The translations under genes and the position numbers were made by a program. DNA of 64,000 bases from Escherichia coli (lineage in GTDB: Bacteria > Pseudomonadota > Gammaproteobacteria > Enterobacterales > Enterobacteriaceae), in assembly GCF_003334815.1 (NCBI RefSeq), contig NZ_QOWO01000006.1; one strand, written 5' to 3'. Below the pieces are notes generated by a model. That model made no database searches and was not told the origin of the DNA. It saw only the letters and a list, made by a program, of their open reading frames with translations. Of the stretch, positions 1,129 through 3,372 are shown in pieces; position 1 is the stretch's first letter, and the number at the start of each line of letters is the position of its first letter.

Positions 1129-3372
1129 ATGAAACTGAATGCAACTTATATAAAAATACGTGATAAATGGTGGGGGCTTCCGCTGTTCCTGCCTTCTTTA
1201 ATCTTGCCCATTTTCGCCCACATTAATACTTTCGCGCATATTTCTTCCGGTGAGGTTTTTCTCTTTTATCTGCCTCTGGCACTGATGATCAGCATGATGA
1301 TGTTTTTCAGCTGGGCGGCATTGCCAGGGATCGCCTTAGGGATTTTTGTCCGCAAATATGCAGAGCTGGGTTTTTACGAAACGCTATCATTAACGGCTAA
1401 TTTTATTATCATTATCATTCTCTGTTGGGGCGGTTACAGGGTCTTTACTCCCCGGCGTAACAACGTTTCACATGGTGATACCCGTTTAATTTCCCAGCGT
1501 ATATTCTGGCAGATTGTGTTTCCTGCAACGCTGTTTCTGATACTTTTCCAGTTTGCTGCATTTGTAGGATTACTGGCGAGCAGAGAAAATCTGGTCGGTG
1601 TCATGCCTTTTAACCTCGGGACTTTAATCAATTATCAGGCCTTACTGGTGGGTAATCTGATCGGTGTCCCGCTGTGCTACTTCATCATTCGGGTAGTGCG
1701 AAATCCATTTTATTTACGTAGCTATTATTCGCAATTAAAACAGCAGGTTGATGCCAAAGTCACCAAAAAAGAGTTCGCGCTCTGGCTACTGGCATTAGGT
1801 GCTTTATTGTTGCTGTTATGCATGCCGTTAAATGAAAAAAGCACAATTTTTAGCACCAATTATACCTTGTCATTATTGCTGCCCCTGATGATGTGGGGAG
1901 CGATGCGCTATGGTTATAAGCTGATTTCGCTGCTCTGGGCGGTCGTGTTGATGATCAGCATCCACAGCTATCAAAATTACATTCCCATTTATCCTGGCTA
2001 TACCACGCAGCTGACCATAACCTCCTCCAGTTATCTGGTATTCTCTTTTATTGTCAATTATATGGCTGTACTGGCAACCCGTCAGAGAGCGGTAGTCAGA
2101 CGCATTCAGCGGCTTGCGTATGTGGACCCGGTGGTTCATCTGCCAAATGTTCGCGCCCTGAATCGCGCGTTGCGTGATGCCCCCTGGTCTGCGCTTTGTT
2201 ATTTACGCATCCCTGGCATGGAAATGCTGGTTAAGAACTATGGCATCATGCTGCGGATTCAATACAAGCAAAAACTTTCTCACTGGCTGTCACCCTTGCT
2301 GGAACCGGGTGAAGATGTTTATCAGCTTTCGGGTAACGATCTCGCGCTGCGACTGAATACAGAATCGCACCAGGAGCGCATTACCGCACTGGATAGCCAT
2401 CTCAAGCAATTTCGTTTCTTTTGGGATGGCATGCCGATGCAACCGCAGATTGGCGTCAGTTACTGCTATGTGCGCTCGCCAGTGAATCATATCTACCTGC
2501 TGCTGGGAGAGCTAAATACGGTCGCCGAACTTTCCATCGTGACCAACGCCCCGGAAAATATGCAGCGTCGCGGGGCAATGTATTTGCAACGCGAATTGAA
2601 AGATAAAGTCGCGATGATGAATCGACTACAGCAGGCGCTGGAACACAACCATTTTTTCCTGATGGCCCAGCCGATTACCGGTATGCGTGGTGATGTTTAC
2701 CATGAAATTCTTCTGCGCATGAAAGGTGAGAATGATGAACTGATCAGCCCCGATAGCTTCTTGCCGGTCGCGCACGAATTTGGTTTATCGTCGAGTATCG
2801 ACATGTGGGTCATTGAGCATACGCTGCAATTTATGGCTGAAAACAGAGCGAAGATGCCCGCTCACCGTTTTGCTATTAATCTGTCTCCAACCTCGGTATG
2901 TCAGGCTCGTTTTCCTGTTGAAGTCAGTCAGTTGCTGGCTAAATATCAGATTGAAGCGTGGCAACTTATTTTTGAAGTCACCGAAAGTAATGCTCTGACC
3001 AATGTTAAGCAGGCGCAAATCACCTTGCAGCATCTTCAGGAATTAGGCTGCCAGATTGCGATTGATGATTTCGGCACCGGCTACGCCAGCTATGCGCGGC
3101 TTAAAAATGTGAATGCCGATCTGCTTAAAATTGACGGCAGTTTTATCCGCAATATTGTGTCAAATAGTCTGGATTATCAGATAGTGGCATCGATTTGCCA
3201 CCTGGCGCGAATGAAGAAAATGCTGGTAGTGGCAGAGTACGTTGAAAACGAAGAGATCCGCGAGGCGGTGCTCTCTTTGGGGATCGATTATATGCAGGGT
3301 TATCTTATTGGTAAGCCGCAGCCGTTAATTGATACGCTGAATGAAATCGAACCCATTCGCGAAAGTGCCTGA
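1129..3372 (+). CDS. pdeF: Cyclic-di-GMP phosphodiesterase PdeF (YfgF): N-terminal multi-helix membrane domain, degenerate GGDEF region, EAL-type domain
   Basis: 747 aa ORF; hydrophobic N-terminal ~300 aa; no intact GGDEF motif; EAL-domain signatures DDFGTGYAS and KIDGSFI with EIL (HEILLRM) in place of EAL. Recognised as YfgF/PdeF. Confidence 0.95.
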   Translation: MKLNATYIKIRDKWWGLPLFLPSLILPIFAHINTFAHISSGEVFLFYLPLALMISMMMFFSWAALPGIALGIFVRKYAELGFYETLSLTANFIIIIILCWGGYRVFTPRRNNVSHGDTRLISQRIFWQIVFPATLFLILFQFAAFVGLLASRENLVGVMPFNLGTLINYQALLVGNLIGVPLCYFIIRVVRNPFYLRSYYSQLKQQVDAKVTKKEFALWLLALGALLLLLCMPLNEKSTIFSTNYTLSLLLPLMMWGAMRYGYKLISLLWAVVLMISIHSYQNYIPIYPGYTTQLTITSSSYLVFSFIVNYMAVLATRQRAVVRRIQRLAYVDPVVHLPNVRALNRALRDAPWSALCYLRIPGMEMLVKNYGIMLRIQYKQKLSHWLSPLLEPGEDVYQLSGNDLALRLNTESHQERITALDSHLKQFRFFWDGMPMQPQIGVSYCYVRSPVNHIYLLLGELNTVAELSIVTNAPENMQRRGAMYLQRELKDKVAMMNRLQQALEHNHFFLMAQPITGMRGDVYHEILLRMKGENDELISPDSFLPVAHEFGLSSSIDMWVIEHTLQFMAENRAKMPAHRFAINLSPTSVCQARFPVEVSQLLAKYQIEAWQLIFEVTESNALTNVKQAQITLQHLQELGCQIAIDDFGTGYASYARLKNVNADLLKIDGSFIRNIVSNSLDYQIVASICHLARMKKMLVVAEYVENEEIREAVLSLGIDYMQGYLIGKPQPLIDTLNEIEPIRESA

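Follow-up and report, generated by a model that had tools for sequence, protein, structure and literature searches.

The closest described system is PdeF (YfgF) of Escherichia coli K-12; YfgF has also been studied in Salmonella. E. coli PdeF has been described as a protein with a MASE1-degenerate GGDEF-EAL layout that is induced anaerobically (PMC6510439, PMC5635695), and MASE1 domains are stated to have ten transmembrane segments (PMC6510439). Transcription of E. coli yfgF is driven by a class II FNR promoter with a TAGAAT -10 element, giving anaerobic expression (PMC3718329, citing Lacey 2010), and is repressed by BasR (PMC12419081). YfgF is a verified phosphodiesterase (PMC3484386) that is inhibited by pGpG (PMC12419081, citing Lacey 2010), and the E526A substitution in the Salmonella protein abolishes this activity (PMC3718329). 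The motifs of PdeF are tabulated as SGNDL and EILR, with all EAL catalytic residues present (PMC3484386 Table 1). Its GGDEF domain is catalytically inactive (PMC3718329, PMC12419081) and enhances the phosphodiesterase activity at physiological Mg2+ (PMC12419081, summarising Lacey 2010). Beyond enzymatic activity, a KKE motif of Salmonella YfgF is needed for a redox-responsive inhibition of aspartate chemotaxis that is independent of c-di-GMP (PMC3718329). In strain CFT073 the biofilm defect of a yfgF mutant was complemented by both an exogenous phosphodiesterase and an exogenous diguanylate cyclase (PMC3484386); hence, the biofilm phenotype is uninformative.

The locus reported here lies in a window of 64,000 nucleotides, i.e. 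the whole stretch of E. coli DNA that was analysed, and we established which gene it is, how its domains fold, which motifs and promoter elements it contains, and how far it is conserved. The gene and the domains of its product are:

1129..3372, + strand: pdeF (yfgF, b2503) coding sequence, an ATG..TGA open reading frame of 747 amino acids and a TGA stop
1171..2088, + strand: MASE1 integral-membrane domain, residues 15-320, about 10 transmembrane helices (Pfam PF05231)
2089..2619, + strand: predicted degenerate GGDEF-fold domain, residues 321-497, with an N-terminal signalling helix and a helical linker to the EAL domain (structure model and fold search)
2620..3318, + strand: EAL phosphodiesterase domain, residues 498-730 (Pfam PF00563, E=7.8e-71)

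The product is identical to MG1655 PdeF (NP_416998.1) at 747/747 residues (100%). Nucleotides 1-6067 of the window equal MG1655 2624000-2630066 except for one SNP, a synonymous C/T difference in ppx at window position 3690, which is the sole change in the first ~6 kb. The protein, DNA, neighbours and promoter elements are those of K-12 PdeF, and with no difference inside the gene this is the same gene. The synteny is that of the MG1655 annotation: yfgG lies upstream and is divergent, and ppx-ppk lies downstream and is convergent, in the order yfgG-pdeF-ppx-ppk. The gene is present in every one of 5426 complete E. coli genomes, as a single copy with at least 95% identity, and bears the name pdeF in every complete E. 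coli genome listed: it is a core gene of the species. No NCBIfam model reaches its cut-off for PdeF (the best, DibA, scores 168.6 bits where 980 are required), and hence no equivalog assignment is available from that source. We found no evidence that contradicts the pdeF explanation, and the locus is almost certainly the already characterised K-12 pdeF, encoding a membrane-anchored anaerobic c-di-GMP phosphodiesterase. The gene, its architecture, the SGNDL and EIL variants, the enzymatic activity and the FNR regulation have all been published already. The architecture of the first-pass annotation, i.e. MASE1, a degenerate GGDEF domain and EAL, is thereby upheld, by the complete identity to the K-12 protein and by the same description in the literature.

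The start at 1129 is the first start codon past the upstream stop and agrees with the RefSeq annotation; a misplaced start of the open reading frame is thereby ruled out. The Shine-Dalgarno sequence is weak, with GAG 5 nt upstream and GGGGGA 14 nt upstream of the start.

The flanks of the gene contain candidate control elements:

988..1001, + strand: FNR box TTGATATATATCAA, a perfect TTGAT-N4-ATCAA and the unique match in the window
1023..1028, + strand: -10 hexamer TAGAAT of a predicted FNR-dependent pdeF promoter, by sequence reading
3378..3404, no strand assigned: GC-rich hairpin with a 10-bp perfect stem GCGGGCCGAC / GTCGGCCCGC and a 7-nt loop, by sequence and folding

A perfect FNR box occurs once in the 64 kb window against 0.03 expected by chance. 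From the -41.5 spacing of this box we infer a transcription start of pdeF at ~1036 and a 5' UTR of ~93 nt; the box centre would then lie ~41.5 bp upstream of the start. The FNR box at -41.5 and the TAGAAT hexamer agree with a class II FNR promoter, and FNR dependence is predicted. Downstream, the hairpin sits in the 38-bp gap between the convergent pdeF and ppx, and its RNA folds with -24.2 kcal/mol (z = -5.85), a value equalled by 0 of 200 shuffles. It was found by sequence reading and folding: a consensus terminator scan does not list it because it has no T-run. Since its + strand shows no clear U-tract, we go no further than inferring that it probably serves as a bidirectional terminator of both genes.

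The N-terminal domain is matched by the Pfam MASE1 model along its entire length (PF05231, E=5.9e-71, model positions 1-299 of 299). Hydropathy and positive-inside analysis gives 10 transmembrane segments with both the N- and C-termini inside: the K/R-rich loops all fall on one side of the ten hydrophobic segments, and the AF2 model is helical throughout this region. One of these loops holds the motif studied in Salmonella:

1765..1773, + strand: KKE motif, residues 213-215, within a cytoplasmic MASE1 loop (191-215) rich in K/R

E215 of this motif is invariant in 16 orthologues. The first-pass annotation had taken the N-terminus for a membrane domain and an uncharacterised input; the membrane domain stands with the MASE1 match, whereas 'uncharacterised' no longer holds in view of the KKE role (PMC3718329), and the MASE1 domain of PdeF is now partly characterised. 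The signal that it senses, and any gating of the phosphodiesterase activity by it, constitute a mechanistic question in anaerobic c-di-GMP signalling.

The middle domain is detected in a different manner. From the same Pfam search, which was expected to return MASE1, GGDEF and EAL, the GGDEF model (PF00990) is the one missing, with no match in PdeF even at E<=10. Likewise, 120 listed orthologue matches carry PF05231 and PF00563 only, none of them with PF00990, and a homology search with the 177-aa middle fragment yielded nothing beyond short pieces of PdeF orthologues, again none with PF00990. Searched with phmmer against the sequences of the PDB, residues 321-497 taken by themselves had no significant match (among GGDEF domains MorA came highest, at E=1.3); therefore, a GGDEF origin cannot be established by single-sequence homology. 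Since Pfam is blind to it, the domain was demonstrated by structure prediction and fold search. The full-length AF2 model has a pLDDT of 86.3, with ~84-93 in the middle region, and the top 50 Foldseek matches of the domain model in the PDB are all GGDEF domains (E 2.6e-4 to 6e-3). The full-length model aligns with the GGDEF-EAL tandems of RbdA, DosP, MorA and PA0575 over 430-460 columns, with E from 7.6e-27 to 1e-19. At the sequence level, a profile of orthologous middle domains gives in-register matches to the GGDEF domains of MorA, 3mtk and RbdA (E=0.04-1.5), and 4 of 26 distant family members match Pfam GGDEF at E<=1e-3 (best 5.6e-7), which furnishes a transitive link. On these models the middle domain is truly GGDEF-derived though undetectable by Pfam, and annotation based on Pfam misses it entirely.

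The position of the signature motif is occupied by a divergent sequence:

2329..2343, + strand: SGNDL, residues 401-405, the GGDEF-equivalent site on the β2-β3 hairpin (alignment and AF2)

In the AF2 model it lies between the strands 396-399 and 405-409, and it aligns to the GGDEF of both RbdA and MorA. A regular-expression scan of the whole of PdeF bore out the earlier observation that there is no GGDEF or GGEEF motif: no GG[DE]EF, no relaxed [GAS]G[DE][DE]F and no RxxD was found. In alignments with RbdA and MorA, in which this region is only ~10-18% identical, the residues D, D, N, D and R are replaced by R360, P362, V368, I377 and Q399 respectively, and GGDEF by SGNDL; the canonical counterparts are the DxD that follows β1, the Asn and Asp that contact guanine, and the Arg preceding the motif. 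Where canonical domains have 'YxAKxxGRN', PdeF has TNxPEN, which is itself conserved. An RxxD I-site five residues before the GGDEF motif is common, though not obligatory, in diguanylate cyclases; the alignment to RbdA places EPGE (residues 392-395) at this site in PdeF. As the Mg/GTP-binding residues and the I-site are replaced, both cyclase activity and GTP sensing are unlikely, and the degenerate domain probably binds no nucleotide. It is nevertheless under tight constraint: across 16 orthologues the mean identity and the fraction of invariant columns are 74% and 38% in the middle domain, 67% and 24% in MASE1, and 78% and 44% in EAL. A search of 1.84 billion representatives with a middle-domain profile shows a subfamily isolated in sequence space: it recovered only ~95 proteins, among which no canonical GGDEF enzyme is evident, and the full-length matches are all laid out like PdeF, at ~720-770 aa; this result is not by itself proof of GGDEF ancestry.

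The EAL domain, in contrast to its neighbour, is readily recognised: the Pfam match covers model positions 2-236 of 236, many EAL domains of solved structure are matched by sequence (that of RbdA, for instance, at E=6.6e-45), and the AF2 model superposes on solved EAL domains with TM ~0.9 and rmsd ~2 Å. Its principal motifs are:

2704..2712, + strand: EIL (in EILLR), residues 526-528, a variant of the EAL motif with the catalytic, metal-binding E526
3064..3090, + strand: DDFGTGYAS, residues 646-654, metal-binding aspartates and loop 6
3127..3147, + strand: KIDGSFI, residues 667-673, with the catalytic lysine K667

The EIL variant and both signatures had been noted in the first-pass annotation; the variant is at 526, within the Pfam match, and the signatures are found at 646 and 667, with their coordinates re-verified by translation. 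EIL aligns to the ELL of the active phosphodiesterase RbdA. DDFGTGYAS is kept in the orthologues and the wider family, and loop 6 is intact by comparison with DFG(T/A)GYSS, only the penultimate Ser being changed to Ala. K667, I668, D669 and G670 are invariant in the orthologues. The catalytic and metal-binding set is complete and aligns to RbdA: E526, R530, N584, E616 and E619 (EVTE), D646, D647, K667, E703 (AEYVE) and Q723. These residues predict an active c-di-GMP phosphodiesterase, and hydrolysis of c-di-GMP to pGpG is reported in the literature.

We propose that the ten-helix MASE1 domain would act both as membrane anchor and as redox-responsive input module, with the KKE cytoplasmic loop accounting for a separate effect of MASE1 on aspartate taxis that is independent of c-di-GMP. 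A long helix runs in the model from the last transmembrane segment to the GGDEF-fold domain, and a signal may be transmitted through it. The GGDEF-fold domain would then have a structural and allosteric function, helping dimerisation and raising the activity of the adjoining EAL domain: since the GGDEF motif, the Mg2+/GTP residues and the RxxD I-site are lost, it should synthesise no c-di-GMP and probably bind neither GTP nor c-di-GMP. The suggestion that the cyclase-like domain is probably regulatory accords with the enhancement reported at physiological Mg2+ (PMC12419081). The EAL domain, with its EIL variant, would hydrolyse c-di-GMP to pGpG and thus lower c-di-GMP, which would favour motility over biofilm and affect cell-surface properties and peroxide tolerance.

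Three other readings were considered and rejected. In several NCBI/UniRef records the orthologues are named 'bifunctional diguanylate cyclase/phosphodiesterase', which implies that the middle domain makes the c-di-GMP that the EAL domain degrades; and the middle domain does have the GGDEF fold. Its residues tell against such an activity: SGNDL takes the place of GG[DE]EF, the metal-binding Asp, the guanine-contacting Asn and Asp and the pre-motif Arg are replaced, the Pfam GGDEF model has no match, and the motif is intact in no member of the family. In Lacey's 2010 study the purified protein reportedly formed no c-di-GMP from GTP. Published accounts, moreover, describe the domain as lacking catalytic activity (PMC3718329, PMC12419081). 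We hence give a bifunctional enzyme next to no chance, and many database records of orthologues are wrongly named. An equally slight probability attaches to a dead c-di-GMP receptor or 'trigger' like LapD, FimX or CsrD, which would act through protein-protein contacts and MASE1 only. Such a reading draws on the c-di-GMP-independent function of MASE1 (PMC3718329), on remote family members with degenerate EAL motifs (P0177, P0178, P0182 and P0183) and on the fold search, which also matches LapD and FimX. It conflicts, however, with the intact catalytic and metal-binding EAL residues and loop 6 of PdeF itself, and with a phosphodiesterase activity that is experimentally verified and abolished by E526A (PMC3718329, PMC3484386).

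The third reading, a GTP-sensing phosphodiesterase like Caulobacter PdeA (CC3396), in which GTP, still bound by the degenerate GGDEF domain, would activate the EAL domain allosterically, fares slightly better and is still very unlikely. The strong conservation of the middle domain means that it is clearly functional, and the phosphodiesterase reportedly gains activity from the GGDEF domain (PMC12419081, summarising Lacey 2010). Yet the guanine and phosphate/Mg2+ contacts appear to be replaced (R360, P362, V368, I377, Q399), as is 'YxAKxxGRN' by TNxPEN, and the reported enhancement depends on the Mg2+ concentration, not on GTP (PMC12419081). The preferred reading is hence that of a phosphodiesterase only, as the first-pass annotation had predicted: the EAL set is intact, the GGDEF-like domain has lost its active-site, GTP and I-site residues, and the literature agrees.

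The locus itself is of little discovery value; the exact role of its conserved, nucleotide-blind GGDEF-like module is a mechanistic question. As the module has lost all nucleotide-binding residues and yet evolves nearly as slowly as the EAL domain, a new specific role is possible. We tentatively raise, as a minority view, that the middle domain of PdeF/PdeA-type proteins is a module in its own right, derived from GGDEF and tightly conserved, with a new role: it might link MASE1 to EAL as an obligatory device for dimerisation or transmission, or bind a partner or a ligand other than a nucleotide. Its candidate signature is [S/P]-G-x-[D/E]-L together with the invariant blocks NYG..LRIQYKQ and SYCYVRSPV.H, and it hardly occurs anywhere but between MASE1 and EAL.

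Comparison with known systems places these features in context. E. coli DgcE (YegE), like PdeF, has an N-terminal ten-TM MASE1 domain as anchor and input module. In DgcE the partner of MASE1 is the GTPase RdcA; PdeF is not known to have an RdcA-like MASE1 partner. DgcE combines three PAS domains with an active GGDEF and a degenerate EAL domain, and thus has the opposite enzymatic polarity to PdeF. MASE1 has been proposed to confer proteolytic turnover, with PdeF named alongside DgcE (PMC6510439). E. coli PdeA (YfeA, b2395) is a paralogue with a colinear MASE1-degenerate GGDEF-EAL organisation (30% identity over 716 aa, E=4e-101); it has PGSEL at the motif position, EIL as its EAL motif and all catalytic residues (PMC3484386 Table 1). 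It differs in that it can be detected in aerobic conditions that yield no detectable PdeF (PMC5635695); the aspartate-taxis phenotype is not reproduced when YfeA is expressed (PMC3718329), and in our alignment the KKE loop motif of PdeF is not conserved in PdeA.

Modelled PdeF fits, with its cytoplasmic half, onto RbdA (5xgb), MorA (4rnh) and PA0575 (5m3c), all of Pseudomonas aeruginosa, and on E. coli DosP (9cmf), the match to 5m3c_B having TM 0.73 and rmsd 4.9 Å. PdeF and these solved GGDEF-EAL tandems have the EAL catalytic residues in common. The soluble or PAS-linked tandems have PAS or other sensors in place of MASE1. The aligned RbdA and MorA sequences keep the GGDEF motif intact against SGNDL in PdeF, and RbdA (5xgd) and PA0575 (5m3c) have been solved with GTP bound, whereas the domain of PdeF is too diverged for Pfam. 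Caulobacter crescentus PdeA (CC3396) reportedly has a degenerate GEDEF motif, keeps its GTP-binding residues and is allosterically activated by GTP as a phosphodiesterase; the structure of its EAL domain (3u2e) is among the fold-search matches of PdeF. Both proteins have an inactive GGDEF domain ahead of an active EAL domain, which it enhances. However, CC3396 retains the GTP-binding residues that PdeF has replaced; hence, the enhancing effect in PdeF is probably structural, acting through dimerisation and Mg2+ affinity.

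A single long ORF, running from ATG to TGA and encoding 747 aa, lies exactly at 1129..3372 on the plus strand, and its product is identical at 747/747 positions to the MG1655 protein NP_416998.1, ‘cyclic di-GMP phosphodiesterase PdeF’ (YfgF, b2503). The gene is thus one already known and experimentally characterised. It is also a core E. coli gene: all 5426/5426 complete E. coli genomes of our collection carry one chromosomal copy of the 2244-bp gene at at least 95% identity, and in 5417 of the 5426 at least 80% of it lies in one contiguous piece. The remaining 9/5426 are without such a contiguous copy. 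In a handful of complete genomes (e.g. NZ_CP010129.1, NZ_CP194957.1 and NZ_CM149861.1; matches H5, H7-H9 and H35) IS1, IS5 or IS903 interrupts pdeF or its immediate flank, such that the gene is annotated as two pieces or just 21% of it is left. Positions 1..6067 of the window match MG1655 2624000..2630066 in reverse complement but for one difference, at 3690 (C vs T in MG1655; synonymous, in ppx); the source strain is K-12-like yet not exactly the MG1655 reference sequence. The native gene order is retained:

586..777, minus strand: yfgG, divergent neighbour of pdeF
988-1001: perfect FNR box TTGATATATATCAA, upstream of pdeF
1023-1028: TAGAAT, -10 element upstream of pdeF
1129..3372, plus strand: pdeF
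3378-3404: perfect 10-bp GC-rich hairpin, in the 38-bp gap separating the pdeF and ppx stop codons
3411..4952, minus strand: ppx, convergent neighbour of pdeF
beyond ppx, further downstream of pdeF: ppk

The small divergent yfgG codes for 63 aa, annotated as ‘Ni/Co stress response protein YfgG’, and a 351-bp AT-rich intergenic region (GC ~37%) is common to it and the pdeF promoter. The perfect FNR box occurs once in the 64 kb window vs 0.03 expected by chance. The E. coli yfgF promoter is described as a class II FNR promoter with the -10 TAGAAT and the box at -41.5 (PMC3718329); this spacing would put the start of transcription near 1036, leaving a 5' UTR of ~93 nt. The gene is induced under anaerobic and micro-aerobic conditions (PMC3718329, PMC5635695), and BasR represses yfgF directly in avian pathogenic E. 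coli (PMC12419081). The hairpin (-24.2 kcal/mol, z = -5.85) was missed by a consensus terminator scan because it has no T-run; judged from its sequence and position, it is probably a terminator shared by pdeF and ppx, despite having no U-tract on the plus strand. Elsewhere in the window, the Rfam model naRNA4 (CssrE, RF02564) scores above its gathering score at 37010..37086 and 61797..61878, the former on both strands, as expected of a palindromic REP-type repeat element.

PdeF is organised as follows:

aa 15-320: MASE1 (Pfam, E=5.9e-71, full model length)
aa 321-497: middle domain
aa 498-730: EAL (Pfam, E=7.8e-71)
aa 646-654: DDFGTGYAS (regex scan)
aa 667-673: KIDGSFI (regex scan)

The first-pass annotation had described a membrane sensor, a degenerate domain of GGDEF type and an EAL domain with an EIL variant. 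Its motif observations hold throughout and are confirmed far beyond chance. A regex scan of the translation finds no GG[DE]EF, relaxed [GAS]G[DE][DE]F or RxxD anywhere in PdeF, SGNDL standing at the equivalent position; E[AVIL]L matches once, as EIL at 526-528 (context HEILLR), and both EAL signatures named in the first-pass annotation are retained. EIL is an ordinary variant, since the middle residue of ‘EAL’, alanine, has no catalytic role. The remaining signature residues are N584 (NLS), E616/E619 (EVTE), E703 (AEYVE) and Q723 (QGY). PdeF carries every residue that active EAL enzymes are held to need, and these align with those of the active phosphodiesterase (PDE) RbdA, whose own motif is ELL. 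Spurbeck et al. give the yfgF row as ‘SGNDL / EILR / QRDD / TE / ENEEDKEQ’, which is the complete pattern of an active enzyme, and describe YfgF as a PDE whose activity has been verified by experiment (PMC3484386), while E526A in Salmonella YfgF abolishes PDE activity (PMC3718329).

For the membrane domain, hydropathy and the positive-inside rule predict ten TM segments, the number also given for MASE1 in the literature (PMC6510439). K/R-rich cytoplasmic-side segments fall at residues 1-14, 103-125, 191-215, 260-262 and in RQRAVVRRIQR after TM10. The first-pass description of this domain as an uncharacterised input needs refining, as the domain is partly characterised: a KKE motif is present at aa 213-215, with E215 invariant among orthologues, and in Salmonella this motif is required for an inhibition of aspartate taxis that is independent of c-di-GMP and sensitive to p-benzoquinone, a phenotype also obtained with E. 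coli YfgF (PMC3718329). The most conserved MASE1 stretch among orthologues, S-x-IFSTNYT-x-SLL-x-P (aa 238-252, window ~1840..1884), lies where predicted TM8 ends on the periplasmic side, with S238, I240, F241, T243, N244, Y245, T246, S248, L249 and P252 invariant in 16 orthologues; the stretch is a candidate for a functional site or one that faces a ligand.

The Pfam search, which the first-pass annotation had suggested as a check, thus recovered two of the three proposed domains, with no GGDEF match in PdeF even at E<=10; NCBIfam has no model for PdeF at its cut-off. Among the 120 orthologue matches listed, from Escherichia, Citrobacter, Salmonella and Enterobacter, precomputed annotation gives PF05231 and PF00563 only. 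Annotation of the orthologue records (P0059-P0171) is inconsistent: the GGDEF-derived domain goes undetected by Pfam in PdeF and the listed matches, and many NCBI/UniRef records name these proteins ‘bifunctional diguanylate cyclase/phosphodiesterase’.

Four lines of evidence nevertheless establish that the middle domain is genuinely GGDEF-derived, diverged past Pfam's reach. Against PDB sequences, aa 321-497 alone gives nothing significant (MorA, E=1.3), but full-length phmmer alignments span the GGDEF domains of RbdA, MorA and DosP, setting SGNDL (401-405) opposite GGDEF. With a profile of 16 orthologues (A2), the MorA GGDEF-EAL comes out on top (E=0.042), and the top ten also include the GGDEF domain of 3mtk (E=0.3) as well as RbdA (E=1.5); the MorA and RbdA alignments agree in register over an N-terminal ‘AY.D..THLPN’ motif and SGNDL/GGDEF. 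The domain-only AlphaFold model (pLDDT 65, core 74-88) has the GGDEF-type order of secondary structures, and every one of its best 50 Foldseek matches in the PDB is a GGDEF domain (E from 2.6e-4), among them those of DosC, DosP, RbdA, DgcZ, MorA, PleD, WspR and FimX. In the full-length model, built from 40 homologues (mean pLDDT 86.3; middle domain ~84-93), SGNDL sits on the hairpin joining strands 396-399 and 405-409, and alignments of the cytoplasmic half to GGDEF-EAL tandems of solved structure extend over 430-460 columns (RbdA, E=7.6e-27; PA0575, 5m3c_B, TM 0.73, rmsd 4.9 A). Finally, a middle-domain profile finds only 95 relatives among 1.84 billion representatives, the full-length ones all ~720-770 aa with the domain at ~317-500 in a MASE1-X-EAL layout: the module is a small, isolated subfamily unrecognised by Pfam. 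Pfam GGDEF matches 7 of 26 full-length relatives at E<=0.1, including 4 at E<=1e-3 (best 5.6e-7), which provides a transitive sequence link. In the family alignment (A3), the remote members P0177, P0178, P0182 and P0183 have lost the EAL catalytic signature too (e.g. YYAISLQ / AINDFGSAWSS and LTFRA / ALSGIDFVHAG), and would presumably be doubly degenerate and non-enzymatic.

The RbdA and MorA alignments, at 10-18% identity and with single positions somewhat uncertain, place the following in PdeF:

metal-binding DxD after beta1: R360, P362
FK: M364, E365
guanine-binding Asn and Asp: V368, I377
Arg before the motif: Q399
GGDEF: S401-G402-N403-D404-L405
I-site RxxD: E392-P393-G394-E395

We take the canonical roles of these positions from general knowledge of PleD-type cyclases; their overall loss, as read from the aligned residues, is consistent in both alignments. 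An intact motif is found in 0/26 family members, the column reading SGNDL, SGASL, PGFDL, PGHDL, PGYDL, PGNEL and so on. Constraint on the domain is strong: across the 16 orthologues, which span 62-93% identity, mean identity relative to E. coli and invariant columns are 67% and 24% for MASE1, 74% and 38% for the middle domain, and 78% and 44% for EAL. Such conservation marks it as a functional module rather than a decaying relic, in agreement with the PDE enhancement at physiological Mg2+ attributed to the YfgF GGDEF domain (Lacey 2010, as summarised in PMC12419081).

The first-pass interpretation is thus supported with refinements, and the model with the best support makes PdeF a PDE-only enzyme that is anchored in the membrane and induced by FNR. 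In this arrangement MASE1 would act as anchor and input, with a long helix (model residues 291-329) running into a nucleotide-blind GGDEF-fold module; the latter would support the EAL domain, which would convert c-di-GMP to pGpG. The PDE-only prediction is favoured by the intact EAL residues, the replaced canonical GGDEF residues and the verified PDE activity (PMC3484386). We consider each of three rivals very improbable: a bifunctional enzyme and a GTP sensor, to be set beside the residue losses, and a dead receptor, to be set beside the complete EAL signature. Purified GGDEF-EAL and EAL fragments are reportedly without cyclase activity, and dimerisation is said to have needed the GGDEF domain.

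Caulobacter PdeA (CC3396) is like PdeF in logic, but PdeF is without the GTP-binding residues that define its mechanism. Of the solved structures, the RbdA, MorA, PA0575 and DosP tandems come closest, and the closest paralogue is E. coli PdeA/YfeA, which is 30% identical over the full length, shares the same architecture and has PGSEL at the motif position where PdeF has SGNDL.
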